Below the pieces are notes generated by a model. The model had not been told where the DNA came from. It searched no databases and saw nothing but the letters and a program-made list of their open reading frames with translations. From contig CAYGNO010000001.1 of assembly GCA_964351305.1 (NCBI GenBank), forward strand, positions 5,332-37,331: a stretch of 32,000 nucleotides of DNA, written 5' to 3'. Shown here in pieces: positions 4,099 through 22,154 of the stretch. Position numbers and translations under genes: made by a program. How positions within the stretch are numbered: position 1 is the first letter of the stretch; the number at the start of each line of letters is the position of its first letter. Origin of the DNA: an uncultured Sulfuricella sp. (GTDB taxonomy: Bacteria > Pseudomonadota > Gammaproteobacteria > Burkholderiales > Sulfuricellaceae).

Positions 4099-4863
4099 CT
4101 ATCCTCCGCCGCCCGATGATTTCTGGCGGGTCAGCAATTCCATGAAATCCCCCGGCACCGGAAAAACGATGGTGTTGGTCTTGTCGCCGGCGATGCCGGC
4201 GAGCGTCTGCAGGTAGCGCAGCTGCATCGCCTCCGGCTGGCGCGCAAGGATTTGCGCGGCTTGCAGCAACTTCTCCGAGGCTTGCAGTTCGCCTTCGGCG
4301 TGGATCACCTTGGCGCGCCGCTCCCGCTCCGCCTCGGCCTGCTTGGCAATGGCGCGCACCATCGACTCGTCGATGTCGACGTGCTTGATTTCCACATTGG
4401 CCACCTTGATTCCCCAGGCATCGGTTTGCGTGTCCAGCGCCAGCTGGATGTCCAGGTTGAGCCGCTCGCGCTCGGCCAGCATTTCATCCAGTTCGTGCTT
4501 GCCGAGCACCGCCCGCAGCGTGGTCTGCGCGAGCTGGCTGGTGGCATTGAGAAAGTCCTCGACCTCGATGATCGCCTTCTGCGGATCGATCACGCGCAAA
4601 TACACCACCGCGTTGACCTTGACCGACACGTTGTCGCGCGAAATAACGTCCTGGGTCGGCACATCGAGCACCACCGTGCGCAAATCGACGCGCACCATCT
4701 GCTGGATGCCGGGAATCACTACCACCAGGCCCGGCCCCTTGACCTTCCAGAAGCGGCCGAGCATGAACACCACGCCGCGCTCGTATTCGCGCAGGATGCG
4801 AAACGATGCGGCCACCAGTACGACAATCACCAATGCGACACCGCCAAACCCGAACTCGAACAT
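4099..4863 (-). CDS. SPFH/Band-7 stomatin-like protein
   Basis: Track ORF trimmed to the ATG at 4863 ([63 protein letters not shown]...). An AAGGAG SD lies inside the 3' end of nfeD, and the gap to the nfeD stop is 2 nt. N-terminal TM anchor followed by an SPFH core. Confidence 0.9.
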
Positions 4864-4865
4864 GA

Positions 4866-6263
4866 TTACTCTCCTTTGGTTTCTGCTTCCATGGGTTTGA
4901 CCTGGAGCACCAGGCCGTCTCGGGCCAGAACACGCATTTTCTGCCCGCGCTGCAGGGGAGACCGGGCCTGCACGCGCCAGTTCTCGCCGTGCACCCGCGC
5001 CCATCCTTCAGTTTCGGTATCCTCCAGCATTTCGCCGACGCTGCCGATCAGCTCTTCGTCGCCGCTCACCACCCGGCGGCGGCGCGCCTTGATTGCCATG
5101 CCGCCGACCAGCCCGAGCAGGAGCGCGCTCGCCACGGCGATGGCGACGATCAGTTCGAGCGGGATGCCGAAGCCCGGCAGTTCGGTGTCGATCAGGATCA
5201 CCCCGCCGGCCACGAAAGCGGCAATGCCGCCGATGCCGAGCACACCGAAGCCGGGAAAAAACGCCTCGGCGACCATGAACGAAATGCCCAGCAGGATCAG
5301 CGCCAGCCCGGCGTAGTTCACCGGCAACAGATTCAGGGCATACAGCGCCAGCAGCAGGCAGATCCCGCCAAGCACCCCGGCCACGCCAAAACCGGGCGAG
5401 GTGAACTCGAAGAACAGCCCGTAGACGCCGATCATCATCAGGATCAGGGCGATGCTGGGGTCGGTGATTACCGCCAGCAGCCCGGCGCGCCAGTCCGGCT
5501 CGTAGGCGAGCAGCGGCGCGCCCGCAGTCGCCAGCAGAACTTCCCCGCCGAGCGTGTTCACCTTCCTGCCGTCGAGCTGCCGCAACAGTTGCGGCAGATC
5601 GGCGGCGACGTAATCAACCACCTTGAGCTTCAGCGCGTCCTCGGCCGGCAGGCTGACCGCCTCGCGCACCGCTTGCTCCGCCCACTCCGCGTTGCGGCCG
5701 CGCATCTGCGCCAGGCTGCGGATATAGGCGGCGGCATCGCTGACCTGCTTGCGGCTCATGGCCTGTCTGGAAGTGCCTCCCGGAGCCTGGGCGTCATCGG
5801 GTTTCGCTGCGTTCCCGGTCGGAGCTGGCGCGGGTTTCTTCGGCTCGGAAAAATCGGGCATACCGCCGATCTGCACCGGGGTGGCGGCCCCCAGGTTGGT
5901 GCCCGGAGCCATCGCGGCGACATGGCTGGCGTAGAGGATGTAGGTGCCGGCGCTGGCGGCGCGCGCGCCGCTCGGCGCGACATAGGCCGCCACCGGCACC
6001 TCTGATGCGAGGATCGCCTTGATGATCTGCCGCATCGAGGTATCCAGGCCGCCCGGCGTATCCATCTGCAGCACCGCCAATTGCGCCTTCTGCCCGGCGG
6101 CATGCGCCAGGCCGCGCACGACGTAGTCCGCGGTCGCGGGGCCGATCGCCCCTTCGACCTTCAGCGCCATCACTGGCGGCGAAGCCGCCATCAGCCAGCC
6201 GGGCGCTAGAAGCAGCAGCGCCAGCGCCAAGCGAAATGCAACTGCCCGTATTCGCATTCTCAT
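4866..6263 (-). CDS. nfeD: Long-form NfeD membrane-bound ClpP-class serine protease (stomatin operon partner)
   Basis: 465 aa. Signal-like N-terminus [27 protein letters not shown], then a ClpP-like domain ([16 protein letters not shown]...), a central polytopic block, and a C-terminal OB-fold ([38 protein letters not shown]). Canonical pairing with the stomatin gene directly downstream. Confidence 0.9.
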
Positions 6264-6629: not shown

Positions 6630-7073
6630 TCATTCCTGGTTATTATGCGTGGACTGCTTTAAATGATCGATGGCCGCTTGCACACCCGCCTTAAAATCCT
6701 TCCAGGCCTCACCGGTTGCCGACTTCAATTCGTCGAGCTTTTCCGCGGCGGCCTTCTGTTCCTGCTGCAAGCGCTTGACCTGCTCATCCAGTTTCACCTT
6801 GGCTTCCCCGGTCGCCTCTTGCGCTTTTTTCTTGAGCTCTTCCATTTTCGGGTTGAGCTCATCCAAATCCTTTTGCGCCTTGCCGACGAACTCGTCGCGC
6901 TCCTGCTTCGCATACTCCATGGCGGTGCCGATGGCCTCCTTGGCCTCCTTTTTCACGTCCTCGGCGCTCACTTTGGACGGGGGTCTGTCTTCTTCCTTCT
7001 TGCTGCAAGCCGATACGGCCAACAGGAAGCCCAATAAGAAGGCCAGCAACAAGCGGTTCATGTTCGTTTTCAT
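6630..7073 (-). CDS. LEA/apolipoprotein-like, highly charged coiled-coil lipoprotein
   Basis: MKTNMNRLLLAFLLGFLLAVSAC carries a VSAC lipobox. The rest is a K/E/A/Q-rich helical sequence (DVKKEAKEAIGTAMEYAKQERDEFVGKAQKDLDELNPKMEELKKKAQEATGEAKVKLDEQVKRLQQEQKAAAEKLDELK...). A GAAGGAA SD lies 7 nt upstream of the ATG at 7073. Confidence 0.75.
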   Translation of the reverse strand: MKTNMNRLLLAFLLGFLLAVSACSKKEEDRPPSKVSAEDVKKEAKEAIGTAMEYAKQERDEFVGKAQKDLDELNPKMEELKKKAQEATGEAKVKLDEQVKRLQQEQKAAAEKLDELKSATGEAWKDFKAGVQAAIDHLKQSTHNNQE

Positions 7074-7192
7074 TTCGAGTTTCCTTCAACGATGTTCGGG
7101 TTGCAGTACGATGAATTCCCCTGTTTAAAATGAGCGGCAATTTTTCGCGGCAGGCTCATAAAGCTGGCGTAATTTTTTATCCAACGCAGCCA

Positions 7193-8401
7193 CTATTTGT
7201 TGTCCTCATCCACGGCCATTTTCAGCATTTCAAAAATACCAGGGATGGCTGTGGTCACCCGGTTCCAGTTCGGGATGAGCGGCGTGGTCATCGGATTTTC
7301 CATGAACACCCGGGTTGCCATGGCGATGGCTTTGGTAAATGCCTCCACCGCCATTGCCTCTTCGTGCCGGTCAAACCTGAGGCCGTTGATTGCTGCATCC
7401 GCTTCGTATTTCATGATCGTATCCTCGGCCTGCCGCAGGTAGGATACGAGCAAGGATTTGAATAAACCGTCCGAAAACACCACCCCTTCCGAGGCTAAGG
7501 TCCTGAAGATGGATTTGCAGATATCCACCGTCATTTTCATCAACCCCTTGTTTGCATCATCGGCAGAAAGCGCCTGGTGTTTGTGTTCGTAGTTCGCCGC
7601 GATATCCACCTGGCAAACCCGGCGATGCGAATAGTTGCGGTGCACTTCGGCCAGGGAGCCCACCTCCAGCCCCCAGTCCCACGGGATCCGGTTCGTCCGG
7701 GCCAGATCGGTAATCATGCAGATCTCCCCGGAGAGGGGGTAGCGGAAGCTGTCGAGGAAAGCGAGAAAATCATGCGGCCCGATGAGTTGCTGGAGGGATC
7801 TGGCCAGCGGCGTCACCAATAGGCGGGTAACGCGGCCGTTCAATTTGCCGGATACCCGGCTGTAGTACCCTTTGCAAAACACATAGTCCAGGTTGGGATT
7901 GACTACGGGGTAGCACAACCGCGCCAGCAGTTCGCGGCTGTAAGTAACGATATCGCAATCGTGCAGGGCAATGACGTCGGACCGGCCCCGCGCCAGCACA
8001 TATCCGTAAGCAAGCCATGCCGAGCGCCCCTTGCCGCGCTCGCCCACATTGAATCCGTTGCGGGCGAATGTTTCATAGATTTCGCTGATCCTTTTGCCGT
8101 CATTGTGAATGATCTTGACCTCCGTCGAGATCGGCGCCATGAACTCCTGTACCCGCCGGAAATCTTTCTCCGAGCCCTTGTCCAGAACCAGTACGATTTC
8201 GTTCAGATACTTGACCTTGGCAAGTTCCTGGACGATTCCCGGCATGGCCGGTCCTTCGAATTCCGAATAAAGGGCCGGCAATACCAAAGCCACAGGCCTG
8301 GTTTTCGAAAAGCCGTACAATTCGGATTCCAGACGCTCAAGCGAAGGTTTGCCGAGCTGATGGAGGGTCGTAATGATTCCTGACTGGTAAAAATCGGACA
8401 C
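7193..8401 (-). CDS. gpgS: Glucosyl-3-phosphoglycerate synthase-type glycosyltransferase (GT81 family; GpgS/MpgS class, ~400-aa form)
   Basis: GTG start at 8401 with a GGAGGA SD 6 nt upstream. MSDFYQSGIITTLHQLG... N-terminus, then VALVLPALYSEF, GKGRSAWLAYGY, the DxD-like HDCDI motif, GRVTRLLVTPLARSL, YPLSGEICM and WGLEVGSLAEV. These follow the order of GT81 GpgS motifs as I recall them from the mycobacterial and Persephonella enzymes. Donor and acceptor specificity are not provable from sequence. Confidence 0.75.
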   Translation of the reverse strand: MSDFYQSGIITTLHQLGKPSLERLESELYGFSKTRPVALVLPALYSEFEGPAMPGIVQELAKVKYLNEIVLVLDKGSEKDFRRVQEFMAPISTEVKIIHNDGKRISEIYETFARNGFNVGERGKGRSAWLAYGYVLARGRSDVIALHDCDIVTYSRELLARLCYPVVNPNLDYVFCKGYYSRVSGKLNGRVTRLLVTPLARSLQQLIGPHDFLAFLDSFRYPLSGEICMITDLARTNRIPWDWGLEVGSLAEVHRNYSHRRVCQVDIAANYEHKHQALSADDANKGLMKMTVDICKSIFRTLASEGVVFSDGLFKSLLVSYLRQAEDTIMKYEADAAINGLRFDRHEEAMAVEAFTKAIAMATRVFMENPMTTPLIPNWNRVTTAIPGIFEMLKMAVDEDNK

Positions 8402-8415
8402 GGCTGATCCTCCGG

Positions 8416-9114
8416 TTAGATATGTTCGATCTCGTCCTTGGTTTCCGCCTTTTCCGCAGGTTCCCTTTCTATCATCCGCCTCGCCGCGTCAATGCCGCCC
8501 ACGCCGAAAGAAATCGCGAGCGCTGTCACGATGCCGCCGAAGATGATCGTAAAGGCGGCGAGCACGATGCTGGGCGCAATCTGTAGCTGCTCCATGGCCA
8601 TGGCCAGAATCAATACCATCAACAAAGTGCGTACGGCATCGGCCAGGAGTTTGGCGTAGTGATAACCACTGTTTACCGCGGCAATCAATACCCCCTGGCT
8701 GATGAATCCAGTAAGCACGTAGCCGATAATCAGGATCATCGCAGCGGAAAAAACACGTGGCACATAGCCGAAGAACTGCTCGACCAGACTGTCGATCGTC
8801 GGGATATTGAGGGCGCTCAGGCCGATCATCAGGGTGACGACGATCAGCAACCAGAAAACGATAGCGCCGAGGGTGGCGGATGGCTTGTCCCACAGGTCGC
8901 CCTTGCGCATCAGAGTGGTAAAGCCCATCCGGTCGGACCAGCTATCGAAGTTGATGGCTGTCAGGGATTTTATGAGTATGACCCTGACGATCCGGGCCAG
9001 AACGATGCCCAGCACCATGATCACAAGCATGGCCAGAAGGTTGGGCAAAAAAACCTTGAACTTGAGAAATACCTCTTGCAAGGGTTCGAGTATCAGATTC
9101 AGAAATTCCATCAT
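8416..9114 (-). CDS. Polytopic membrane protein built from MscS-associated 'conserved TM helix' type repeats, without an MscS channel domain
   Basis: ATG at 9114 with an AAGGAG SD that overlaps the stop of the upstream GT gene. It contains repeated blocks of the pattern (F/V)(L/V)P-x-(L/V)-x-(A/S)A-x-(I/V)-x-(I/V)-x-G-x-(V/I)-x-(A/T): FLPNLLAMLVIMVLGIVLARIVRV and YVPRVFSAAMILIIGYVLTGFISQ. Three more hydrophobic helices follow, then an acidic C-tail. Family call is by eye. Confidence 0.75.
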   Translation of the reverse strand: MMEFLNLILEPLQEVFLKFKVFLPNLLAMLVIMVLGIVLARIVRVILIKSLTAINFDSWSDRMGFTTLMRKGDLWDKPSATLGAIVFWLLIVVTLMIGLSALNIPTIDSLVEQFFGYVPRVFSAAMILIIGYVLTGFISQGVLIAAVNSGYHYAKLLADAVRTLLMVLILAMAMEQLQIAPSIVLAAFTIIFGGIVTALAISFGVGGIDAARRMIEREPAEKAETKDEIEHI

Positions 9115-9125
9115 GATTTATCTCC

Positions 9126-10391
9126 TTAAGATTGTTTCCAGCTGGTTACGAGGTAATCCTTGTTGTTTTCAAATTCCATGCAAAGTTTTTCGATTTCGGC
9201 TTCCGCTTCAGCCCCTTCCATATCCTTCGCAGCCAGGATGAAGGATGCGGTTTTTCCCAGATAAAGCGGGGTCAGGGACTTTATCAGGTGCTCTGCCGGC
9301 AGTTTCTTCTGGTGGAAAGCGATGGCGTAATCATAGATGACCCGTGTCCACAACCCGATGGGAAAGCAGAACTCGTTGTCGGCCAAGGCGCCCAGCCGTT
9401 CCACTTCCCTGAAATCCCCGGCGCCGAGGATATTGAGCCAAATCTCGCGCAGGTTTTTCAGGCCTTCCCGGAACAGGTTCAACATCCTGGCGGTATTGAC
9501 GTTGACATGTTCGAGCCCGACGGTGTATTCGAAGCCGAAAGTCGGTACCGGCTCGGAGCCGCGTATGGGTGCCCAGGTATTCGCGTAGCTCTCCATCAGG
9601 TCGAAGCTGGCGCTCACCACCTGATAGAGCATGCTGCTCAGGTCGGCGCCGGGGTCCTTGGCGTCGTGGATCTTGGCGCCGAGAAAGGACTGGGCGACCT
9701 TGAAGCCGTTCGCCATCGCCGTCGTGGTCATCCAGATGTCGATACCGAAGCGCGCGACATCCGATTCCCACACGTCCTTGGTCAGGTAGAACTGCGCCAG
9801 CCGGCCGGAAAAACCGAAATCCCCGCCTATCGGCTGCCGCACCCGCTTGCCATAAAGCGCACGGGTAAGGGGGTAGACGATGCTGTTGGTGATGGTCCCG
9901 TCGAACTTGTGCCGGTGATAGAGCGGGGTCACGTAGTCAAAGCCGCCGATCAATACCGGCTTCACCAGCAGCTCGATCCACTCGGGCGTGATGCTCCTGA
10001 GATCGGAATCGACCACCACGCAGGCCTTTGCATCCAGCGTCCGGGCAATTTCGAAAATGCTACGAAAGGCGCTCCCCTTGCCGGGAATGCCCGAATAAGG
10101 GAAGGCGATCTTGGAGATCGGCTCCACCCGGTGATGCAGGAGAATGGCGCTGAAGTCCTCGACGGATGCGTTCTGCACTACGTCCGTGGTACCGTCGCTG
10201 GAGCCGCCGTCGGAATTCACGATCACCGCCTTGTGGGAGGGGAAGTACTTGGCCAGGCCCGCCTGCACCGCGCGCACGACGTGGCCGATGGTTCGTGCAT
10301 TATTGAAACTCGGGATGCCGACTATGATGTCGGCAGCCCCGACCTTCATGATCTGGTCATGCACCTCTGTTCTGAAGGTAATGTCATTCAT
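9126..10391 (-). CDS. GT-A fold glycosyltransferase of unassigned specificity (GT2 / mannosylglycerate-synthase-like layout)
   Basis: The ATG at 10391 overlaps the stop of the upstream gene (ATGA). Motifs present: IIVGIPSFNNARTIGHVV...VNSDGGSSDGT, GIPGKGSAFRS, the DxD motif VVVDSDL, QPIGGDFGFS and FGIDIWMTT. The order GKG...DxD...QPxGG(D/E)...(W/F)GID resembles glyceryl-glycoside synthases (MGS/GpgS type) as I remember them. Confidence 0.8.
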   Translation of the reverse strand: MNDITFRTEVHDQIMKVGAADIIVGIPSFNNARTIGHVVRAVQAGLAKYFPSHKAVIVNSDGGSSDGTTDVVQNASVEDFSAILLHHRVEPISKIAFPYSGIPGKGSAFRSIFEIARTLDAKACVVVDSDLRSITPEWIELLVKPVLIGGFDYVTPLYHRHKFDGTITNSIVYPLTRALYGKRVRQPIGGDFGFSGRLAQFYLTKDVWESDVARFGIDIWMTTTAMANGFKVAQSFLGAKIHDAKDPGADLSSMLYQVVSASFDLMESYANTWAPIRGSEPVPTFGFEYTVGLEHVNVNTARMLNLFREGLKNLREIWLNILGAGDFREVERLGALADNEFCFPIGLWTRVIYDYAIAFHQKKLPAEHLIKSLTPLYLGKTASFILAAKDMEGAEAEAEIEKLCMEFENNKDYLVTSWKQS

Positions 10392-12592
10392 CGTATGGAT
10401 AGCCCCTCTGTTTTTTCGTTACTGTTCACGGTCGCGCAGTTCGGCAGCGGCCCCTTTTCCAGCAGGATGATCTGGAGGTCCATGACGTTCGTTCCCGTCG
10501 GCCCGGTCATGAAATGGCTGCGCTCCCCTGACAAGGCATCGAGTTGTTGAAAGAATCCATAGGAGTTGTTGTCGTCAAGGTAGGCGTCAGGCCCTATTCC
10601 AAGCCGGCGCGCCCGTCCGGTCGTATTGCCGTCGACCAGCGCGCCGGCGGCATCCGTCGGCCCGTCGCCGCCGTCCGTGCCGGCGGAAAGCAGGGTCACC
10701 CCGGATTGCCGGGCTATCTCCAGGGCAAAGGCCAGGGCAAGCTCCTGGTTTCTGCCGCCTTTTCCCGTTCCCCTGACGGTGACCGTGGTTTCGCCGCCGA
10801 ACAGCAGGCAGCGCCGTTCGCCCGCTTCCAAACCGGCTTGAGTCGTGCCTGCGGTCCGCGCCAGGAAGCGTGCGGCGTCGCGCGCTTCACCCTGAAGTTC
10901 GGCGGTGACGATATCCGCGGCAAACCCGAGTTGCCGGGACTTTTCCTGCGCCGCCGCCAGGGCTTGACCAATCCCGGCGACAATCACGTTCCGGGTTCCT
11001 GACAGGCAGGGTTCGCCGGCTTTTACCGTTTCCGGCTCCAGTCCGGCGATACCCCGTTGCAGATAATCCATGACACGCCTGGGGATTCTTTCCTTCAGCC
11101 CGTATTTCTCGATCACGGACCAGGCATAGTCAAAGCTTGATTCGTCCGGCGCGGTCGGCCCGGAGGCGATGACGTCGAGCCGGTCACCGATCACGTCGGA
11201 AAGAATCATCGTCACCATCTGCGCCGGGTAGGCGGCCTGCGCGAGCCGTCCGCCCTTGACGGCTGAAAGATGCTTGCGCACCGCGTTCAGCTCGCCGATG
11301 GTCGCGCCCGCTTTCAGCAGCAAAGCGGTCACCTCCTGCTTGTCTTGCAGCGTCACCCCTTCGACAGGCGCGACCAGCAGCGCTGACGCGCCGCCAGAGA
11401 GCAGGCAGATCACCAGCGTCCTCTCGTCCGCGACCCGCATCATTTCCAGTATGCGCTGCGCGCCCTCCATCCCGGCCTTATTGGGGACAGGGTGAGACGC
11501 CTCTATCTGCTCAACCATAGCCAGTGTTGCCGTGTGGCCTTCTTTCACGACAATCAGCCCGGCGGAAATCCGTTCGCCGAGCAACGCTTCTATGGCCAAT
11601 GCCATGCGCGCCGTGGCCTTCCCCGCACCGACCACAACGATGCGGCTAAAGTCTTCAAGCGGGTACGCGGCACCGGCAACAGTCAGGCATTCGTTCTCAA
11701 GCTTTGCGGCGTTGAGCACGGCCTGGTAGGGATCGACTGCGGCAAGAGCGGCGCTAAAAATATGGGTAAGAATTGATGACGGCATTTCTTCTCCGGCGTT
11801 CCCGGCTGATAGCAATTGCAGCACCGCTTCGTTCCAGCCCAGTGGGCCGGCGCTTTGCGTCTTCATCATGCCGGCTATGGCGATGCGGGAATCGAAACTT
11901 CCGTCCTCGTGCCGGATCAGCACCGGGCGGTCCACCGCCTGGAGCAATGGCAGGTCGTTCAGACTGTCTCCCAGCCCGATGCTGTGGATTTCGCCATACT
12001 CGCGCTCGTAGAGCGCTTTCAGGGTTTTCACGGCAAGGCCTTTGTCGTGTTTGCCCATAATGTGGAAAACCCGCCCCTGGGTCCAGTGCAGGCCGGCGTC
12101 CTCTATGGCTTGCAGAAAACGTGCGTCAGGCGCGCCATCGAAGACGAAAGGTTCGTCGAAATCACGCTGCTTGGCCAGGATAGCGTCATCGCAAGAGAGG
12201 CCCGTCAACCCGGCGACCTCCTCCGCCGTCATGTCTGCAAAGCCGCGTACGCTTGCCCCCAGCCGTTCCCGGAGAGCAACGAAGTGGCGTCTGATCTCCG
12301 CATAGGGCGTGCCGAGCGTGATGCGCTGATAGCCATCCACTGAATCAACCGGCGCGGAGAAGTAGCCCTGTGGAATGAAGATTCCGCCACCGTTTTCGGT
12401 TATGAAAGGGTGGAAGTTGTGCATGCGCTGGCGACAAGCTTCGATTTCAGAGCGCGTTTTGCTGGAACAGAGAACCAGCGGCACACCGTGCGCCTGAATC
12501 AGGCTTAAGGCCGGTAGCGCGTCATTGAAGGAATACCTCACCGCATCGAGCAAGGTTCCGTCCAGATCGCTAAAAAGGATCGTTTTCCGCAT
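10388..12592 (-). CDS. Fusion protein: N-terminal HAD-IIB mannosyl-/glucosyl-3-phosphoglycerate phosphatase-family domain plus C-terminal MOFRL-type glycerate kinase (TtuD/GckA-like)
   Basis: The track ORF starts at TTG 12634; the ATG at 12592 (MRKTILFSDLDGTLLD...) is preferred. N-terminal domain: DLDGT nucleophile motif, LVLCSSKTRSE and GLGDSLNDLPLL, giving a YedP/MPGP-like layout. From about residue 285 onward: DPYQAVLNA, VVVGAGKATARMA, ASHPVPN, LLSGGASALL, LSDVIGD, FGGETTV, GKGGRNQE and GTDGGDGPTDAAGA, the hallmark order of DUF4147+MOFRL glycerate 2-kinases. It is a single uninterrupted frame. Confidence 0.85.
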   Translation of the reverse strand: MRKTILFSDLDGTLLDAVRYSFNDALPALSLIQAHGVPLVLCSSKTRSEIEACRQRMHNFHPFITENGGGIFIPQGYFSAPVDSVDGYQRITLGTPYAEIRRHFVALRERLGASVRGFADMTAEEVAGLTGLSCDDAILAKQRDFDEPFVFDGAPDARFLQAIEDAGLHWTQGRVFHIMGKHDKGLAVKTLKALYEREYGEIHSIGLGDSLNDLPLLQAVDRPVLIRHEDGSFDSRIAIAGMMKTQSAGPLGWNEAVLQLLSAGNAGEEMPSSILTHIFSAALAAVDPYQAVLNAAKLENECLTVAGAAYPLEDFSRIVVVGAGKATARMALAIEALLGERISAGLIVVKEGHTATLAMVEQIEASHPVPNKAGMEGAQRILEMMRVADERTLVICLLSGGASALLVAPVEGVTLQDKQEVTALLLKAGATIGELNAVRKHLSAVKGGRLAQAAYPAQMVTMILSDVIGDRLDVIASGPTAPDESSFDYAWSVIEKYGLKERIPRRVMDYLQRGIAGLEPETVKAGEPCLSGTRNVIVAGIGQALAAAQEKSRQLGFAADIVTAELQGEARDAARFLARTAGTTQAGLEAGERRCLLFGGETTVTVRGTGKGGRNQELALAFALEIARQSGVTLLSAGTDGGDGPTDAAGALVDGNTTGRARRLGIGPDAYLDDNNSYGFFQQLDALSGERSHFMTGPTGTNVMDLQIILLEKGPLPNCATVNSNEKTEGLSIR

Positions 12593-12658
12593 CTGTCCCT
12601 TTCCGAGGTTGCTGTGGTTTTCGTGATTTCTCAATAGTCGATCTGTAATGCCGCATCA

Positions 12659-13522
12659 TTACAGCGACGTCAGATAGGCGGCAAACTCCTCGCGCAAATC
12701 CTCATGTTTCAGGCCAAAAGCCACCTGTGCCTTGAGGTATCCCAGCTTTGACCCGCAATCGTAACGGGTGCCGCTGAAACGATAGGCCAGCAGTTTCTCT
12801 TCATGCAGCAGCGCGGCGATGCCGTCCGTCAACTGGATTTCCCCCCCCGCGCCCGCCTGCGCTCGCGCCAAATGATAGAAGATGCGCGGTGTCAGGATAT
12901 AGCGGCCGACCACCGCCAAGGTGGAAGGCGCGTCTTCCGGGCGGGGCTTTTCAACGAGACCGTTCACCAGCTCCACGCCCGGTTCCAGATGGGTTGCGCT
13001 GACGATGCCGTACTGACCCGTTTGTTCGCGGGGCACGTCCTGCACGCCCAGCACGGAACACAGGTGGCGCTCGTACACTTCCACCATCTGCTTGATCGCA
13101 GGGGGCTCGCCATCGATCAGGTCATCAGCGAGAATCACCGCGAAAGGCTCGTCCTGCACGACCGGCTGCGCGCACAGCACGGCATGGCCCAGTCCGAGCG
13201 CCTCGGACTGGCGGATGTAGATGCAGTTCACGTGTTTCGGGACGACATCCTGCACCGCGCGCAGCAGTTCCTGCTTGCCGCGTGCGGCAAGTTCCGCTTC
13301 CACCTCGTAAGCGGTGTCGAAATGATCTTCTATGGCGCGCTTGTTGCGCCCGGTGATGAACACCATATCGGTGATTCCGGCCGCCACGGCTTCTTCCACC
13401 GCATACTGGATCAGCGGTTTGTCCACCACCGGCATCATCTCCTTGGGGCTGGCCTTGGTGGCGGGCAGAAAACGGCTGCCCAGACCGGCCACCGGAAATA
13501 CGGCTTTCGTGATTCTTTTCAT
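12659..13522 (-). CDS. galU: UTP--glucose-1-phosphate uridylyltransferase
   Basis: The track start 13531 is GTG. The ATG at 13522 has a GGAG SD 8 nt upstream. [45 protein letters not shown]... is a textbook GalU N-terminus, and VEKP is also present. Confidence 0.9.
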
Positions 13523-13662
13523 CGTTGGCACTCCATTAAGACTCCCTAAATTTTTTCCACCGCATTCCAGCCTATTTCATCATAGCCTCGCGTACGCACA
13601 AAAATCATCTACGCTTGCAGATTCTGCGCGGCATCTTGCCGTTATGGATCAAGAAACGCGCC

Positions 13663-14199
13663 TCATTTTTCCACTTCCATGGAGGAATGGTTTGGCGACA
13701 GATCGGATAAAATCAGGTCTGAAAGCGGCTGCATGGCGGCTTCCTTGTCCCTGACCCCGATCTCATCGAGCACCTGAGCGAGGCTCCTGTTAAGGTTGTC
13801 CAGCACCTCGTCCGGCAGTCGATTGAGGGCTTCCGGAAGTACGCCCCGCACTGGCTGCGGAGCACTTGCGACAATTCGCGTCCCTTCATCGGTGAGGAAC
13901 AAGCGGACTATCCGCTGGTCAGGGTCATTGCGCTCCCTTCGAATCAGGTTGCGTTTCGCCAACTTGTCGAGCAGGTTGCTTGCCGTCGAAAGATGCAGTG
14001 ACATGGCCTTGGCGAGATCGGAAACCCGCTGCCCGGGATGTCCCGCCACCTCTCTCAGCACCCACAACTGGGCTCCGCTCAGCCCGCATTGATCCTCGAT
14101 CCGGCGGAAGTGCTGCTGCGCCGAACTGACGATTTGACGGAATTTTTTCAGCGCTTCCAACGATTTCTCGTGCAAACCGGATTCTTGGGTGGCCTTCAT
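13663..14199 (-). CDS. MarR-family transcriptional regulator
   Basis: Track ORF 13663..14397 trimmed to the ATG at 14199 (MKATQESGLHEKSLEALKKFRQIVSSAQQHFRRIEDQCGLSGAQLWVLREVAGHPGQRVSDLAKAMSLHLSTASNLLDKLAKRNLIRRERNDPDQRIVRLFLT...). Classic winged-helix MarR core. The upstream part of the track ORF is translated AT-rich promoter DNA. Confidence 0.85.
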   Translation of the reverse strand: MKATQESGLHEKSLEALKKFRQIVSSAQQHFRRIEDQCGLSGAQLWVLREVAGHPGQRVSDLAKAMSLHLSTASNLLDKLAKRNLIRRERNDPDQRIVRLFLTDEGTRIVASAPQPVRGVLPEALNRLPDEVLDNLNRSLAQVLDEIGVRDKEAAMQPLSDLILSDLSPNHSSMEVEK

Positions 14200-14237
14200 T
14201 TCGAGTCGATTCGTTTTCCAAAGGGGATTATAAATAT

Positions 14238-14270
14238 ATTTGTACAAAACCACTTTTACAATGCCTAATT
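14238..14270 (-). promoter_or_regulatory. Promoter/operator block upstream of marR: TTTGTACAAA palindrome plus ATGCCTAATT box
   Basis: 24 of 33 positions are identical, with identical spacing, to 23147..23179 upstream of the sucrose operon. Read on the minus strand it gives TAGGCA-N17-TACAAA and TTGTAA-N17-TATATT, both sigma70-like arrangements. The palindrome core is TTGTACAA (14240..14247). Confidence 0.5.
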
Positions 14271-14436
14271 TTTGATTATTCTTCAAGCCTTTTTCAACAG
14301 GCATTATCGTGTCGTCCGAATTATAAAATGATGAATCAGTCACTTGCTGCGGCGGAGAGAAAGCCCTGACTTCGAGAAAAAGCATCCTCCCTGGCATCTT
14401 ATGCGGATCAGCGCCGAATTGATTGGCGCCCCGCTG

Positions 14437-14483: not shown

Positions 14484-14867
14484 ATGAATCTTGAGAAAGT
14501 AATCTTTGCGTTTTTTATCGTCCTTGCGCTGACCCTGAACTTCGGTTTTTTTCTCGGCAGCATCGACAACCCGGTCCACCACAGCGTTTATGAGCTGTTC
14601 GCCGCCATCGTCATCAGCCTGATCGCCACCATCCTGAAATTCGGCGATCGCACCCATCTCGGCGCGGTGCTGCTCGCCACCAGCCTGGTGGCCGACTTGC
14701 AGCTGATCGCTGCGGCGATGGTGTGGGCGATGGCGGAACATGTCACGCATTCCGGGCTGACTCCTCACATCATGGCGATCATCGTTTCCCTTTCCGGCGG
14801 CGCGCTGCTCGCCAATATCACCTCGGTGGTGCTGCTGGTAGCCGAAACCATCGCGGTGCGCCGCTGA
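14484..14867 (+). CDS. Small 4-TM membrane protein of unknown function
   Basis: AGGAGG at 14472..14477 is followed by ATGs at 14478 and 14484; the second has normal SD spacing. MNLEKVIFAFFIVLALTLNFGFFLG... contains four hydrophobic helices. It ends 20 nt before the channel gene. Confidence 0.7.
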   Translation: MNLEKVIFAFFIVLALTLNFGFFLGSIDNPVHHSVYELFAAIVISLIATILKFGDRTHLGAVLLATSLVADLQLIAAAMVWAMAEHVTHSGLTPHIMAIIVSLSGGALLANITSVVLLVAETIAVRR

Positions 14868-14887
14868 CCGTCCGGCGAGGGCCTGTC

Positions 14888-16618
14888 ATGCACAATATCG
14901 TGTATGTCCTGCTGCGGCGCATCCATGTGCCGCTGATCGTGCTGGTGTGCGTGTATTCCATTTCCGTTCTGGGTTTTGTCCTGATCCCCGGCGTGGATGG
15001 GCAGGGCAAGCCGTGGGACATGGGTTTCTTCCATGCCGTCTATTTCGTCAGCTTCCTGGGCACCACCATCGGGTTAGGCGAGATCCCCTATCCGTTCACC
15101 GATGCGCAGCGGCTCTGGGCCACGATCAGTATCTATGGCACCGTGTTCGCCTGGCTGTATGGCATCGGCGCCGCCCTGTCGCTGTTGCAGGACCCGGCCT
15201 TTCAGTCGACCCTGCGGGCAAACGCCTTCCGCCGGTCGGTCAGGCTGATCACCGAACCGTTCTATCTGGTGTGCGGCTACGGCGACACCGGCAGCACGCT
15301 GGTGCGTGCGCTGTCCGATGCGGGTTACCGCTCGGTGGTGATCGAGGTCGAGCAGAGCCGCATCGTTGCGCTGGAACTGGAGGATCTGGGGATGCCCGTA
15401 CCCGGGCTGTGCGCCAGCGCCGCCGTGCCCAAAGTCCTGGTGATGGCGGGTCTGGACCGCCCTAACTGTATTGGTGTAATCGCGCTGACCAATGTGGATG
15501 ACGCTAACCTCAACGTCGCGATTACCGCCAAACTGCTGCGTCCCCGCGTTGTCACTATCGCCCGGGCAGAGTCGCGTTCGGTCGAGGCCAATATGCTTTC
15601 TTTCGGCACCGACCAGGTATTCAACCCCTTCGATACCTTTGCCGGGCGTCTCGCCCTGGCGCTGCATTCGCCCGGCATGTTCCTGCTGTATGAGTGGATG
15701 ACTGCCGTGCCGCACGAGACCTTGCGCGAGCCCCTGTTCCCGCCGCACGGGCGCTGGATACTGTGCGGATACGGCCGCTTCGGCAAGGCAGTGTATGAGC
15801 GTCTGGTTGCGGAGGGTGTCCAGGTCACCGTTATCGAGGCCACACCTGAAACTACCGACGCACCGCCCGGCACCATCTCCGGCTCGGGCACCGAAGCCGC
15901 TACGCAGCTCGAAGCCGGCATCAAGGACGCGGTGGGCATCGTGGCCGGCACCGACAACGATGCGAACAACCTGTCCATCATCATGACTGCGCGCGAACTC
16001 AACCCCGGCCTCTTTATGGTCGCACGCCAGAACCAGCACCAGAACAACATCATTTTCAGGGCGGCCCAGCTCGATCTCACCATGAAGCGCGGCAGCGTGA
16101 TCGCCAACAAGATTTTTGCCCTGACCACCACGCCGCTTCTGGCAGAATTTTTACAAGTGGCCCGGCTCAACTCCAACGAATGGGCCAACCAGCTGGTGAG
16201 CCGCATCGGCGGCATATCCGGCGACGAGGTGCCGCAGACCTGGGCGCTGGAAATTACGCCTGCAGCCTCGCCGGCCCTGTATGCCGGGATTGCGAGGGGC
16301 AGGCGGGCCCGCATCGGCGATCTTTGCCGCGATCCGCGCAATCGCGATGAATGCCTGCCTTGCATTGCGCTATTGATCAAACGCGGAGACGCCGAGATTC
16401 TGTTGCCGGCGGACGATGAAATGCTGCGGCGAGGAGACCACATCCTGCTATGTGGCCGCGACGGCGCAGGTCAACAAATGGAATGGATCGCGAAGAACCA
16501 CAACGTGTTCAATTATCTCTATTCCGGCGAAGAGCGCGCCAGCGGCAGTGTCTGGCGCTGGCTCACGCGCGAAAAAGAGCATCCGGCCCACCCGGAAGGC
16601 CCGCCGCCAGAATCCTGA
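14888..16618 (+). CDS. 2-TM pore-loop cation channel with two RCK/TrkA-N domains; non-canonical TTIGLGE filter
   Basis: Track ORF 14723..16618 trimmed to the ATG at 14888 (MHNIVYVLLRRIHVPLIVLVCVYSISVLGFVLI...). The pore helix and filter read FFHAVYFVSFLGTTIGLGE (filter codons 15062..15082). Rossmann motifs are LVCGYGDTGSTLV and ILCGYGRFGKAVY. Confidence 0.85.
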   Translation: MHNIVYVLLRRIHVPLIVLVCVYSISVLGFVLIPGVDGQGKPWDMGFFHAVYFVSFLGTTIGLGEIPYPFTDAQRLWATISIYGTVFAWLYGIGAALSLLQDPAFQSTLRANAFRRSVRLITEPFYLVCGYGDTGSTLVRALSDAGYRSVVIEVEQSRIVALELEDLGMPVPGLCASAAVPKVLVMAGLDRPNCIGVIALTNVDDANLNVAITAKLLRPRVVTIARAESRSVEANMLSFGTDQVFNPFDTFAGRLALALHSPGMFLLYEWMTAVPHETLREPLFPPHGRWILCGYGRFGKAVYERLVAEGVQVTVIEATPETTDAPPGTISGSGTEAATQLEAGIKDAVGIVAGTDNDANNLSIIMTARELNPGLFMVARQNQHQNNIIFRAAQLDLTMKRGSVIANKIFALTTTPLLAEFLQVARLNSNEWANQLVSRIGGISGDEVPQTWALEITPAASPALYAGIARGRRARIGDLCRDPRNRDECLPCIALLIKRGDAEILLPADDEMLRRGDHILLCGRDGAGQQMEWIAKNHNVFNYLYSGEERASGSVWRWLTREKEHPAHPEGPPPES

Positions 16619-16630
16619 GTGGCGTAGGCC

Positions 16631-17542
16631 TTATGCCGTTCCGCTGCGCTGAACCACATGCAGGGGCGGCGCCGAGCCGTCCTTGCCCTGACCGGCGTAA
16701 ACGGTCAGGTGGGGATAGGGGATCTCGATTCCGTGGCGGTCGAAAGCCTGCTTCAGCCGGCGCAGATATTCCCGGCGCACCCCCCACTGTTCCAGCGGCA
16801 ACACCTTGAAGCGGCAGCGCAGGATCACGGCCGAATCGTCCCACCGGTCCACCCCGGCCATTTCCATCGGCTCCAGAATCTTGCCGCCGAAGGCCCCGTC
16901 CTCGCGCATCCCGGCGCCGACCTGGCGCATCACCTCCATCACCTCGTCCGTGTCTTCGCGGTAGGCTACCCCGACGTCGATCACCGCATAGGCGAACCCC
17001 CGGCTCATGTTGGTGACGGTGGTGATGATGCCGTTAGGGATGAAATGGACGTTGCCGTCGTAGTCGCGCATCTTGATGTAGCGCAGGGTGACTTCTTCCA
17101 CCAGTCCGCCCTTGCCGCCCGCCTCCACCACGTCGCCCTGCCTGACCTGGTTTTCCAGCAACAGGAAGAAGCCGTTGAAATAGTCCTTGATCAGGCTCTG
17201 CGCCCCGAACCCCACCGCGATGCCCAGCACCCCGGCAGTGGCCAGGATAGGCGCGATGGAAACGCCCAGTTCGCTCAGTACCACCATGCCGGAAACCACG
17301 TAGATAACAACAGAGGCGATGTAGCGGAATACCCGGCTCAGGGTTTCGATGCGCTTCAGATCCTCCAGGTTGTTATCCGCCTGGCTCCGCAGGTAGGCCT
17401 TTAATAGCTTGATCGCTTTGTTGGACAAGCGCAGCAGCACCCAGCCCAGGGTCAGGATCAGGAGGATGTGCAGGCCGGACTGGGAGAACAGCAGCAGTTC
17501 TTTCATGTTTCCCGTAGCGAAAAAGGCAGATAGTTTGTCCAT
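16631..17542 (-). CDS. MscS-family small-conductance mechanosensitive channel
   Basis: 303 aa. TM helices are followed by GVLGIAVGFGAQSLIKDYFNGFFLLLENQVRQGDVV and a beta-domain (NVHFIPNGIITTVTNMS). The start lies 30 nt after the sucrose synthase stop, with an AGGAAAAA SD. Confidence 0.9.
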   Translation of the reverse strand: MDKLSAFFATGNMKELLLFSQSGLHILLILTLGWVLLRLSNKAIKLLKAYLRSQADNNLEDLKRIETLSRVFRYIASVVIYVVSGMVVLSELGVSIAPILATAGVLGIAVGFGAQSLIKDYFNGFFLLLENQVRQGDVVEAGGKGGLVEEVTLRYIKMRDYDGNVHFIPNGIITTVTNMSRGFAYAVIDVGVAYREDTDEVMEVMRQVGAGMREDGAFGGKILEPMEMAGVDRWDDSAVILRCRFKVLPLEQWGVRREYLRRLKQAFDRHGIEIPYPHLTVYAGQGKDGSAPPLHVVQRSGTA

Positions 17543-17572: not shown

Positions 17573-19969
17573 CTAATCCCGGCCGATCTTGCCGGCCAGC
17601 GGGCGGTACTGCAAATGGTAGAACATATCCAGATAACGCGCGGTTTCCTCACGCTCGGCGCCACTGACGAATTTCCAGAAGCCATAGATACGGGACAGGG
17701 TCATCATGCGCTCGGCGTACTGCTTCCAGGTGTAGTTGGCCGCGACGCGCGCAAGGGCGCCTTGCGACAATCGCTCCCATTCCTGCGGATCGGTCGCGCA
17801 ACGATCGAGAAAATCCGCCATCAGCTTTGTGGCAGCGGCGCCATCGTTGGGATCGATGTGAAAGCCGGAACGATTGTGCCGGATGATCTCCATCGGACCG
17901 CCATGGCAGGTGGCGAAGGTGGGCAGTCCCGAGGCCATGGCCTCGATGATGGTCAGGCCGAAGGCTTCGAACAGAGCCGGCTGCACGAAAATGCCGCGAC
18001 CGTCGGCCACGTAGCGGTACAGTTCGCCCGCCAGGTTCTTGTCCAGGCGCATGCCCAGCCAGCGCACCTGGCCGTCCAGTCCACGGGTTTCCATGATCTG
18101 GTGCATGTAGCGAATTTGTCCCTGCTCTTCGTGGTCGGCGGATAGTCCCGGGTCGATATAGCCGCCAATAACCAGAAGGTTGGCGCGCTCGCGCAGTTCC
18201 GGCGAGGCGCCGTACCAGTCCACCAGGCCGGTCAGGTTTTTGATGTGATCCATCCGTGCCATGGTGAAAATCAGCGGCTTGCTCTTGTCCTCCAGCACGC
18301 CGCGCGCCGAGGGTCCCGGTTCCGCACCGTAGATCATGGCTTCGAGCTCAGGGATCAGGCTGGTGAGGCGGCGTCCGTTATCGCTGTAAGGGAAATAAAC
18401 ATCCGCATCCGCGCCGGGAGAAACGATATTGAACTTCGGGTCGAACAGGTCGATGCCGTTGACCACCCGGTACAGCCCCGGCATGGTGAAAGCATGATAG
18501 CTGCCGTACTGGCCCACCGTTTCATCGGTACCCGCGATCTCCTGATAGGTGCTGGCGATGATGAAATCCGCCGTGTTCATGGCGATCAGATCGGCGGTGT
18601 ACTGGCAGGAAAAATGGTACTGCCCGTCGTTTTCCTTCCAGTACAGATCGGAATGCAGGTATTTGGTCTTTTCCAGGGCATGGGCGATGTTGCACTGGGT
18701 CACTCCCAGCCGCTGGCTGAGCAGGGAGGCCACCAGGTTGCCGTCGGAATAGTTGCCGATGATCAGGTCCGGGCGTCCGCCCAGTTCCGCCAGGGCCTCG
18801 CGTTCCACGTCTTGGGCAAAATCTTCCAGATAAGGCCAGATTTCGAAGCGCGAAATCCAGTGCCGCACGATTTCGCCGTTCTGCTTGTGGAAAGGCACCC
18901 GCAGTATCCAGGTATTGTCGCAGCCGCTGACTTTTTCCAGCCGCTGGTTGCAGGTGGTCTGCCCGGCATCCGGAATCAGGCGGGTGACGATCGTGATTTT
19001 TGGTTCCACCGGCACGCCCTGGCGCGCCAGACGCTCGCGCATCTCCCGCTCCAGTGCCCGGACCTGGTCGAGGATATAGACCACCTGCCCGCCGGTGTCC
19101 GGCAGCCCCAGCACGTTGTCCTGGCCGAAGTAGCCGTGTGGCGAGAGAATCAGCAGGCGCGAGATCATCGGGATGCGCGCCAGGAAAGCCTCCAGGGCTG
19201 TCGGCGAGGGCGCCTCCAGGATGTCCGAGAGCAGGCCCATGGTTTCGGCCACCCGACCGGCATTGTCGCCCCAGCCGGGCGCGAAACCCAACTTGCCCAG
19301 TTTCTCGGACAAAGTTGTCCACGGAGCTTCCTCCTCGATTTTTTCCAGTTCACCGAGTGCGCGTCGCAGCGCTGCGCGCAGGGCAGCCGTGTCGCGGAAG
19401 GTTTTGTCGATCATCAACTGCTGGCCGTCGATGGCATGGACGCTGAGAAAATTCAGGAGTTTTTCCGCTCCTTCCTGCGACCGGTTGAACATGTCGCTGG
19501 ACAACTTCCGGTTGAGGAAGAGCATGCCCTGGCCGATGGAGCGCGGCTCCTTGAGCCGCGGGAACCCGCGCCCGAAAGGCCCGAAGTCGATCTCCAGCAC
19601 GGAAGCCTCCGAATGATCGACCTGCATTTCCTTGAAGCGCAGGAATTCCGGGGTGCCGATCTGTTCGGGAACCACCGAATCCGCGTGGATGCGCAGATAG
19701 ATCCATTGCGCCGCACCTGGCCGTACTGCGAAGTAGGCCCAGGGTGCCTGGAAAACTCCTTCCTGGAGGCGTTCCACGAAATGGCCGAGATGGGTTGCCG
19801 CCAGATCGGCCTGGCCGTGCTCGCGGCACAGCGTTGCAAACTCCTCGCGCAGGTCGGATTGCAGCAGGAACGGGCGGTTTTTCGCGAAATACCGGCGCAG
19901 CAGCGCGTAGACCGGGTCCCGATTTTCTTGCGCGTAGGCGCCTAACTCTTCAATCATTCTTTCCGTCAT
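17573..19969 (-). CDS. susA: Sucrose synthase
   Basis: Track ORF (TTG at 20065) trimmed to the ATG at 19969 ([44 protein letters not shown]...), with an AAGGAGG SD 6 nt upstream. It contains [20 protein letters not shown] and a GT4 C-terminal half ([15 protein letters not shown]). The N-terminus resembles the Nitrosomonas europaea enzyme as I remember it. Confidence 0.9.
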
Positions 19970-22154
19970 GCTGAACCTCCTTTGATTTCTCTGCCGTTTT
20001 TTCCCCATCGAAGCCGTAGTGATCGAGGCCTTCCAGGATGCCGCTGGCACAGTGGCCACGGGCAAAATAGATCTGCTCGAGGCCGCGCAACGGCTCGAGC
20101 TCCGGGCTGTGGTTGCCGACCACTACGCCGAGGGTGTCGCCAACCAGCATTTCCTCGTCGTTGCCGGAGTCGCCGGCCACCAGGAAGCTGCGCAACGGGA
20201 TTCCCCACTTGTAGGCCAGGTAGCGGATGGCGTGCCCCTTGGAGGCGCGCACCGGCAGTACGTCGAGAAACTCCTGGTGCGAGTAGATGAGCCTGGCATG
20301 CAAGTTTTTTTCGTGCAGCAGGCGGTAGAGGCTTTTGAGCGGAGGCATCCGGTCCGGCGTCACGTTGTAGCTCAGCTTGAACTCGCGCTGGTTTTCCCGT
20401 GGCTGCAGTTCGAGTCCGGGTATTTCCGCCAAGGCCTCCGCCAAGGCATCTCGGCGCCACAAGTAGCGTATATGGTTGGCCCAACCGGCATCCGGGCGCA
20501 GTTTCGGACCATAGTTGATTTCGCTGCCCACCGAGGTGATCAGCACGTTGGGCAACGGTACGCGCCAACTCCTGAGCACCTTGACCGCACTTTCCAGCCT
20601 GCGGCCGGTGGCGATGCCGAAGGCAACCGTCCCGGCATGGCTGCGCAGCCAGGCGACCAGTTCCTTCAGGCCTTCCTTGTGGCCGATCAGCGTGTTGTCG
20701 ATGTCGCTGACCAGTATCCGCCTCACCAGGGGCATGGTGGATTTGTCGGTGTGGAGGACGGATGCAAGCTGACGGCGCATGCGCTTGCGGTCGCGGCGCA
20801 GCAGGTGGCGCACCGCCTTCATGTATTTCGCGACGTGGGCATCCCAACTGTAATGCCTCTTTACACCCGCCACGCCGTTTTTTGCCCATAGCCGCCATTG
20901 TTTTTTGTCGGCCAGCGCAGCATTCAGTGCGGCGGCAATGGCAGACGGGTCGAGGGCGTTTACCAGCAAGCCGTTGCGGCAGTTGCCCACGATGTCGCGC
21001 GGGCCGCCGTCCTCGGTGGCGACGAAGGGCAGTCCGCTGGCAGCGGCCTCGATCAGGGTCAGACCGAAAGGTTCGGTCAGCGCCGGATTGACGAACACGC
21101 CGCGGCGGCGCGCCGCCATACGGTAAAGCTCCGGCACATCGTCGGCGGAGTGATGCTTCGGGAACGCCACCTTGCCCCACAGGTCATAGCGGTCGATGTC
21201 GAGCAGCAGATCGCCCAGGACTTTCTGCTGGGCTTCGTCCAGGTCGCGGATATCATCCCGGTTGCCCGCCACGATCACCAGATTGGCCGCCTCCTGCAGT
21301 TGCGGATCCTCCCCATACGCCTTGACCAAACCTTTCAGATTCTTGCGCGTATCGGGCCGGCAAATGGTCAGGATCATGGGTTTTTCCGGCCTGGACAGGA
21401 AACGCTCCACACTGTCCCCGATGGTTGGGTCGATCTTTTTCCGTCCCGGGGGAGAAAAACGCGAGGTATCGGTGCCCGGTGGAATGACGATGCTGCGCCT
21501 CGGATCGTGGTTCTGGTACATGCCGTACTGATCGACGACCTCCTGGCGGGTGCTGGTGACCACCAGTGAAGCGTGGGCCAGCACCTTTTCCTCTGCGGCG
21601 ATGCGTCGCGCCAGATGAAACTGGCGTTCGATGGCCTGTTCCTTGCGCCCGCTCGCCAACAGCCGCGCACGCTTCGGTCGCCCGAGCGAATGGCCGGTGT
21701 GAATCTGGGGAATGCCCAGCAGCAGGGAAAGCTGCTGCCCCACGTAGCCGGCATCGGCGTAGTGGGTGTGGATCAGGTCTGGCAGGCGGCCCTGCTGGCG
21801 CAACAGGTGCAGGCAGCGGTCCACCATCTGGTCCAGATGCGGCCACAGCACTTCCTTGCGCAAATAGCGGCGGGGGCCAAAAGGAAGACGCAGGATGCGC
21901 GCGCCGCTGCCGATCGACTCCTCGACCTGGGCATAGTCCGGCGACACCGCGGGGTCCTCGACCAGACGCGTGAGCAGGTCCACCTGCACGACCTCGCGGT
22001 GGCGCGCCAGGGCTCGCGCCAGCTCGACCACATAGGTGGTTTGACCGCCGGTGTCGGCATCGCGTCCCAGTTCCATATCCTTGCCCCGGATCAGACCGTG
22101 CACACTGATCATCAGGATGTACAGGGGATTTTCACTCTTGATCGATGTCGTCAT
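19950..22154 (-). CDS. sps: Sucrose-phosphate synthase with C-terminal SPP-like HAD domain
   Basis: Track ORF 19950..22517 trimmed to the ATG at 22154, which forms an ATGA overlap with the frk stop. [49 protein letters not shown]..., then the GT4 core ([28 protein letters not shown]). The C-terminal HAD domain carries DIDNT (20691..20705) and [10 protein letters not shown]. Its 3' end overlaps the susA start by 20 nt. Confidence 0.9.

Follow-up and report, generated by a model that had tools for sequence, protein, structure and literature searches.

Why should a small membrane protein related to mechanosensitive channels be encoded between two glycosyltransferase genes of a solute operon? The question is raised by a window of 32,000 nt, the whole stretch of DNA analysed here, from an uncultured Sulfuricella sp. 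(GenBank assembly GCA_964351305.1, contig CAYGNO010000001.1, positions 5,332 to 37,331). Its minus strand carries at 8416-9114 a gene for a 232-residue protein, which we call TMH232. Our analysis indicates that TMH232 is a five-helix inner-membrane protein corresponding to the membrane part of an MscS channel, without the β and α-β domains of the cytoplasmic cage. The protein most likely forms an MscS-like oligomer that responds to membrane tension and is dedicated to this solute system; it is predicted to act as a vent or as an enzyme-docking sensor.

Gene, topology and internal repeats

The TMH232 gene and the sequence elements within it are as follows.

8416-9114, minus strand: the TMH232 gene, encoding a 232-residue, five-helix protein of the MscS membrane-module type (open reading frame; PF05552; NF033912; AlphaFold2 (AF2) model)
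8941-9084, minus strand: PF05552 repeat 1, residues 11-58, with a pre-helix, an F-L-P motif and transmembrane (TM) helix 1; the best Pfam stretch
8665-8799, minus strand: PF05552 repeat 2, about residues 106-150, with a pre-helix, a Y-V-P motif and TM helix 3, the equivalent of MscS TM1; coordinates estimated from the self-alignment and the AF2 helix at 105-148
8419-8436, minus strand: tail motif D-E-I-E-H-I, residues 227-232, following a charged disordered tether; predicted local distance difference test (pLDDT) below 50 for residues 224-232

Pfam assigns TMH232 to PF05552 (MS_channel_1st_1, formerly TM_helix), which matches in two stretches with 58.4 bits (E 6.6e-16; cut-off 22 bits). At E <= 10 this is the sole Pfam match, with no PF00924, PF21088 or PF21082. 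BLASTP of the protein against itself pairs residues 18-39 with 114-135, the same two helices that a first-pass annotation, made by a model from the letters alone, had picked out as copies of one pattern in a polytopic 232-residue protein. That description is confirmed, as are the family match and the membrane topology that the annotation had proposed to check. Residues F22, P24 and G36 of repeat 1 are almost invariant across the TMH232 family.

Hydropathy places five hydrophobic segments at approximately 22-44, 80-102, 117-147, 153-175 and 181-207, and the helices of the AF2 model (mean pLDDT 79.6) agree with them. The basic residues are in loop 1, loop 3 and the C-terminal region, a charge distribution that fits a predicted N-out/C-in topology. 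Only about 25 residues follow helix 5, forming a short amphipathic stretch that resembles TM3b, a charged tether and a disordered end. The NCBIfam family NF033912 ('msc') scores TMH232 at 95.5 bits, below its cut-off of 100, with the best stretch covering positions 70-205 of its 365; a true member of that family, P0179, scores 328 bits.

Homology to the MscS membrane core

Helices 3, 4 and 5 of TMH232 are homologous to MscS TM1, TM2 and the pore-lining TM3a, and two elements are central to this assignment.

8494-8772, minus strand: core homologous to MscS TM1-TM2-TM3a, residues 115-207 (profile against PDB, hhalign, Foldseek)
8494-8574, minus strand: helix 5, residues 181-207, which may line a pore or mediate oligomerisation (column profile of 82 representatives)

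A family profile built from 82 representatives finds 15 matches in the PDB, every one an MscS, with E-values from about 1e-6 to 1e-3 and a best value of 9e-7. The top match is a 171-residue MscS (9seh/9sdb, E about 1e-6), and positions 115-204 of the profile align with residues 24-111 of Escherichia coli MscS, spanning TM1, TM2 and TM3a (E about 1e-4). The TMH232 sequence by itself gives weak PDB matches only (E 0.08); significance in this search therefore depends on the family profile, the single sequence being too weak. Alignment of the family with MscS proteins from the same loci by hhalign gives E 6.3e-5. In the Foldseek comparison of the AF2 model with the PDB, the high-probability matches (0.77-0.93) are all E. 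coli MscS structures, and the best of them, 6vyk, superposes 92 columns with a root-mean-square deviation (rmsd) of 2.2 Å. Foldseek matches to BAR-domain and other long-helix proteins have rmsd values of 20-45 Å and were dismissed as long-helix artefacts.

Helix 5 is the most conserved region of the family, with the consensus F-G-G-x-V-L-A-L-A-L-A-F-G-L-G-G-[RK]-D. Its small residues fall at positions 198, 200, 202, 204 and 206 (A198, A200, A202, G204 and G206), where they are conserved in 65-81 of the 82 sequences. The helix ends in G-x-G-G followed by [RK]-D and aligns with MscS G104-G113. By the same alignment, the large hydrophobic residues L201 and L205 correspond to the MscS gate residues L105 and L109.

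Two relatives extend the comparison. P0249, a 291-residue protein from the representative search, contains the same five-helix module followed directly after helix 5 by a PF00924 fragment (21.4 bits), and can be aligned with positions 22-171 of the E. coli MscS model; it connects the cage-less family with ordinary MscS. A member of a sister subfamily, described below, aligns with the MscS model at positions 30-113.

The first-pass annotation had described MscS-type helices, of the kind known from the N-terminal membrane parts of these channels, without a channel domain. The helix type is borne out by PF05552, and the β and cage domains are indeed absent; the last three helices are nevertheless homologous to the MscS core, the pore-lining TM3a included. 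With respect to the features that define the MscS family, TMH232 has those of the membrane part (the TM1-TM2 hairpin and the TM3a pattern, by alignment only) and lacks those of the cytoplasm (the PF00924 β domain and the PF21082 α-β domain), and it should therefore not be filed as an MscS channel.

Operon and gene junctions

The genes around TMH232 make up a predicted glucosylglycerate operon of five genes, all on the minus strand, in the order galU, gpgP/GK, ggs, TMH232 and gpgS, with gaps of 24, -4, 11 and 14 nt.

12659-13531, minus strand: galU, UDP-glucose pyrophosphorylase, gene 1 (TIGR01099, 379 bits, cut-off 327)
10388-12634, minus strand: gpgP/GK, a fusion of a GpgP/MPGP-type phosphatase and a glycerate 2-kinase, gene 2 (TIGR01486, 222.9 bits; DUF4147 and MOFRL)
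9126-10391, minus strand: ggs, a Ggs-like GT-A glycosyltransferase of 421 residues, gene 3 (PF21969 MGS_GT, 26.1 bits, cut-off 27; PF00535, 24 bits)
9115-9128, minus strand: ggs/TMH232 junction, where the TAA stop of ggs overlaps an AAGGAG Shine-Dalgarno sequence with an 11-nt spacer to the ATG (read in the sequence)
7193-8401, minus strand: gpgS, glucosyl-3-phosphoglycerate synthase of the Methanococcoides type, gene 5 (NF040724 GpgS_Meth)

The ggs stop codon (9126-9128) lies within TAAGGAGAT, so that the Shine-Dalgarno sequence of TMH232, whose ATG is at 9114, overlaps it. At the other end of the gene, the TMH232 stop codon (8416-8418) is separated from the GTG start of gpgS at 8401 by a 14-nt gap containing GGAGGA. 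Both junctions are as first annotated. A scan for consensus promoters and terminators found no promoter-like site between the operon genes on their strand, with total site counts near those expected by chance; as evidence on co-transcription the scan is weak.

The product of gpgS matches NF040724 over its full length with 353 bits, under the equivalog cut-off of 700. The 421-residue glycosyltransferase bears a distant and weak similarity to GpgS and MGS. Proteins 82-91% identical to it carry the source name 'glucosylglycerate synthase' (Ggs) at the Joint Genome Institute (JGI), which suggests that it is a Ggs-like enzyme. Its AF2 model has a mean pLDDT of 53.8 and a shallow alignment, and was left out of the fold search. 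The closest homologues of all the operon genes come from Sulfuricella and other Sulfuricellaceae.

The 748-residue phosphatase/glycerate 2-kinase fusion is also found in Sulfuricellaceae, Gallionellaceae (L082) and Aminicenantes (L018, L026); lineages other than the fusion carriers have the phosphatase alone, at about 275 residues. The operon holds a glycerate kinase although the Ggs-like enzyme would need free glycerate. Just downstream of gpgS, at 6630-7073 on the minus strand, lies a gene for a 147-residue protein with a lipoprotein-like N-terminus (a hydrophobic stretch, then Cys) and a charged helical body; its matches are apolipoprotein-like and weak.

Pairing with Ggs across lineages

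The neighbourhood of TMH232 was compared in 81 loci, searched with the proteins of the window: 80 from a scan of one genome per species and one from Sulfurimicrobium (L001). The 80 loci come from Sulfuricellaceae, Nitrospirota/Thermodesulfovibrionia, Desulfobacterota/Syntrophorhabdus, Acidobacteriota and Aminicenantes. In 66 of the 73 loci that have 1.4 kb or more of upstream DNA, the TMH232 gene is directly preceded by a Ggs homologue (55-96% identity), the median gap being 16 nt; these pairs are spread over Betaproteobacteria, Nitrospirota, Desulfobacterota and Acidobacteriota. The remaining seven belong to Aminicenantes and Acidobacteriota and, where the flank suffices to show it, have the order TMH-GpgS-GpgP/GK-Ggs. 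A search begun from a Gallionellaceae Ggs recovers the arrangement of the window, gpgP/GK-ggs-TMH-gpgS. The flanking genes differ wholly between lineages while the ggs-TMH232 pair persists.

The first-pass annotation had proposed a check of co-occurrence with gpgS. A gpgS gene was found in about 45 of these 81 loci, and gpgP in fewer; gpgS was rejected as the constant partner because it is undetected in about 36. The constant gene partner of TMH232 is the upstream Ggs-like glycosyltransferase, not gpgS. Absence of the gene from otherwise syntenic clusters had been named as an outcome that would count against a solute-linked role, and the gene was found in every syntenic cluster examined. In loci without gpgS, the pair is accompanied by two GlgC-like nucleotidyltransferases, α-amylase-family enzymes and a CaCA exchanger. 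The genes around the pair are predicted to supply nucleoside diphosphate-glucose or to handle solutes.

A further gene accompanies the pair in six Deltaproteobacteria-type loci that contain gpgS.

About 6750-7850 in each full-flank locus (L037, L040, L049, L050, L065 and L079): a complete MscS (PF21088, PF00924 and PF21082) between the TMH232 gene and gpgS

A single cluster can therefore contain MscS-type genes of both kinds. Such loci raise the possibility that TMH232 is an accessory subunit, joining a full-length MscS through the shared TM3a face and, during expression of the solute operon, shifting its selectivity or the threshold at which it gates. The homology does include the TM3a packing helix, a full MscS follows immediately downstream in these six loci, and the window and Gallionellaceae have one close by. 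In most loci, however, there is no MscS gene within 6 kb, and a subunit of this kind would leave unexplained both the tail and the tie to Ggs rather than to MscS. We know of no MscS heteromer with a cage-less subunit, and consider this explanation very improbable.

Two loci and one protein deserve separate mention. On a Nitrospirota contig (CAVVUN010000006.1, 79149-99063; L015/L019), two Ggs/membrane protein/gpgS modules stand in tandem with a full MscS in between. In P0187 (441 residues), an N-terminal Ggs half, 63% identical to residues 9-215 of the Ggs in the window, is fused in frame to TMH residues ~25-232. This protein was rejected as a Rosetta-stone fusion of the two partners; it lacks half of Ggs and the beginning of the membrane protein, and the single, deletion-type join may be an assembly artefact.

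The C-terminal tail and a sister subfamily

The disordered tail of TMH232 belongs to a pattern shared by the Ggs-linked orthologues, whose C-terminal consensus is D-[DE]-[IL]-x-H-[LI]. The ending H-[LIV] is present in 59 of 80, and in most of the others the H is replaced by P, Q, L or M. A second set of loci was obtained by a metagenome search with relatives that lack the tail ending, and 70 of these have usable upstream DNA. Ggs is directly upstream in four, and precisely those four bear the tail motif, which is found in none of the other 66 (hypergeometric probability about 1e-6, although the four may share ancestry). The tail motif tracks Ggs linkage.

The second set also reveals a different partner. 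In 23 of the 70 loci the gene directly upstream encodes a fusion of trehalose synthase and maltokinase (TreS-Mak), within clusters that contain, by Pfam assignment, GlgE, TreS-Mak, the membrane-protein gene and a TreZ/GlgX-like gene.

L117, L132, L135, L145, L146, L153, L154 and L159, with 15 shorter loci (example L154:585-6687): TreS-Mak-linked relatives

About half of these relatives end in a motif of the type R-W-W-P-[RKQ]. Together with the Ggs-linked set, they make at least two subfamilies of the module whose genes directly follow that of a sugar-osmolyte enzyme. In the other 43 of the 70 loci neither Ggs nor TreS-Mak is upstream, and the neighbours of most tail-less members vary; since these relatives have no conserved enzyme neighbour, the module would have a function that is independent of a partner.

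These endings suggest another role, in which the cage-less module does not conduct. It would sense turgor or membrane tension and, through its tail, dock on and switch the neighbouring enzyme, be it Ggs or TreS-Mak, so that turgor would feed back directly on the synthesis or removal of solute. The partner-specific endings, with D-x-[IL]-x-H-L confined to Ggs-linked genes and R-W-W-P-[RKQ] present in about half of those linked to TreS-Mak, are what such docking would predict, and the tail terminates a disordered, charged tether as many docking motifs do. The position of the gene, directly after the enzyme gene at near-zero distance rather than at the operon end, fits as well, as does the separate full-length MscS in some of the same clusters. 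Yet no Ggs column co-varies with the change of the tail His to Pro in both of two phylogenetically independent contrasts, and subfamily ancestry alone could explain the tail differences. The strong conservation of the pore-helix pattern and the 43 tail-less relatives without an enzyme neighbour also speak against a docking sensor, and recombinant Persephonella Ggs is reportedly active alone in vitro. We regard this sensor role as possible, but on balance doubtful. The same grade applies to its extension to the whole family, by which cage-less MscS modules would be widespread turgor sensors whose subfamily-specific tails dock on and regulate the upstream enzyme (Ggs or TreS-Mak), a putative form of tension feedback that is independent of transcription.

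The size of the family and the varied neighbours of its tail-less members could instead point away from glucosylglycerate altogether. PF05552-only proteins form 3857 clusters at 50% identity, including forms of 420-680 residues with 3-6 repeats, and TMH232 might share with them a general envelope role, for example in buffering lipid or tension, its position next to ggs being inherited gene order. We think this improbable, for the pairing with Ggs is kept over at least five phylum-level groups despite changed flanks and outlasts the rearrangement of gene order in Aminicenantes, and in the sister subfamily the module is independently paired with another solute enzyme.

A putative tension-gated outlet

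The first-pass annotation had proposed a membrane protein that senses tension or osmolarity, or else a minimal pore for solute release, co-translated with the solute enzymes; this interpretation is supported in part, in its family assignment and its synteny. The reading that we hold tentatively, as falling somewhat short of an even chance, is that a TMH232 oligomer forms the glucosylglycerate system's own tension-gated outlet, with its tail linked to the synthase. In this putative mechanism, the alternating Gly/Ala face of helix 5 would pack an MscS-like oligomer, and the paddles resembling TM1 and TM2 would sense membrane tension. The assembly would then serve as a dedicated outlet, venting solute on osmotic downshift, and the tail may tether TMH232 to the synthase encoded on the same transcript, or signal to it.

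Several points weigh against such an outlet. The hhalign probability is just 64.6%, and none of the PDB matches of TMH232 has a significant Foldseek E-value. The Ggs assignment comes from JGI source names and not from comparison with a characterised enzyme, and the missing covariation between tail and Ggs counts here too. In MscS the β/cage domain keeps the heptamer together, and we know of no characterised MscS-family channel that works without it. Moreover, the extra complete MscS in several of the clusters, the six Deltaproteobacteria-type loci listed above, means that a valve function may already exist there, and a simple valve needs no partner-specific tail.

The remainder of the window

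The whole window reads as an island of putative osmotic and ion stress functions. Its second solute system is a sucrose operon with genes for fructokinase, a sucrose-phosphate synthase/sucrose-phosphate phosphatase (SPS-SPP), sucrose synthase and then MscS.

16631-17542, minus strand: full-length MscS, the last gene of the sucrose operon, separated from sucrose synthase by 30 nt (PF21088, PF00924 and PF21082)
1762-2769: tandem universal stress protein (USP)
4099-5004: SPFH protein
4866-6263: NfeD
13663-14397: MarR
14723-16618: K+ channel with two TrkA_N domains
23333-24673: CitMHS transporter
25171-25818: CBS protein
27241-28149: cation diffusion facilitator (CDF) cation exporter

The first-pass annotation had placed a full MscS at the end of this operon and noted that each solute system in the window carries an MscS-type gene. 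Both statements hold, the one system having the PF05552 gene and the other the complete channel. The longest SPS-SPP open reading frame (19950-22517, minus strand) and that of fructokinase (22151-23074, minus strand) share about 370 nt; homology to SPS starts at residue 132, and the true SPS-SPP start is therefore probably further downstream. In Sulfurimicrobium lacus (L001), the glucosylglycerate cluster is closely preceded by CBS and CitMHS genes.

Significance

Transcriptional control and release through full-size MscS and MscL are well understood, whereas the fast sensing of turgor and adjustment of solute pools in bacteria are poorly understood. The pairing with Ggs points to an undescribed tie between membrane tension and solute handling, and this link could be approached experimentally through the conserved pair, in which a synthase stands beside a cage-less MscS module whose tail is specific to its partner. 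If TMH232 conducts, it would be the smallest natural pore of the MscS type and would show the cytoplasmic cage to be dispensable; if it does not, it would be a tension sensor rewired to enzyme control. With either outcome, the large and unstudied PF05552-only family would gain its first known function, and there would be implications for engineering the production of glucosylglycerate and trehalose and for their 'milking'.

Comparison with known systems

TMH232 shares with E. coli MscS (YggB) and the PF00924 family the TM1-TM2-TM3a arrangement, the Gly/Ala alternation, the hydrophobic residues at the positions of L105 and L109 and a predicted N-out/C-in orientation. It differs from E. coli MscS in lacking the TM3b-β domain, the α-β domain and the C-terminal barrel, and in having an extra N-terminal hairpin, a flexible tail that bears a motif, and a gene tied to that of a glycosyltransferase. 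The best sequence match is the naturally short, 171-residue small-conductance mechanosensitive channel in PDB entries 9sdb, 9seh and 9sdg (seven chains per entry), of which residues 10-94 align with family profile positions 117-201. After the pore helix this channel has about 70 residues, compared with about 25, disordered, in TMH232. A literature search found no paper on these three entries.

The multi-repeat proteins of NF033912 ('msc') and other PF05552-only proteins have the repeat family and the absence of a β domain in common with TMH232, and the 230-residue module corresponds to their C-terminal end. These multi-repeat proteins have 3-6 repeats in 420-680 residues, and the Ggs linkage and the tail are not seen in them. 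Databases list PF05552-only proteins, as a rule under the name 'mechanosensitive ion channel family protein'; the literature search found no study of them, of the pairings with Ggs or TreS-Mak, or of the tail.

Among channels with a cage, E. coli YnaI is a five-helix paralogue of MscS in which two extra N-terminal helices precede the TM1-TM3 core. Its helix count equals that of TMH232, and the full cytoplasmic cage is present in YnaI only. MscCG (NCgl1221) of Corynebacterium glutamicum, an MscS-type efflux route for glutamate with a full MscS core and an extra C-terminal domain, resembles TMH232 in serving a metabolite, putatively so for TMH232; the MscCG gene is not known to lie beside a synthase gene.

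The presence of mechanosensitive genes in osmolyte clusters is itself already known, at least for ectoine: PMC13342039, citing Czech et al. 2022, describes MscS-type channel genes within ectoine biosynthesis clusters and reads them as a release valve. To the extent of that description, the ectoine-cluster channels and TMH232 are alike in being products of mechanosensitive-type genes inside a compatible-solute cluster. Unlike the ectoine channels as described there, TMH232 is cage-less, is encoded in mid-operon directly after one enzyme gene, and carries a partner-specific tail.

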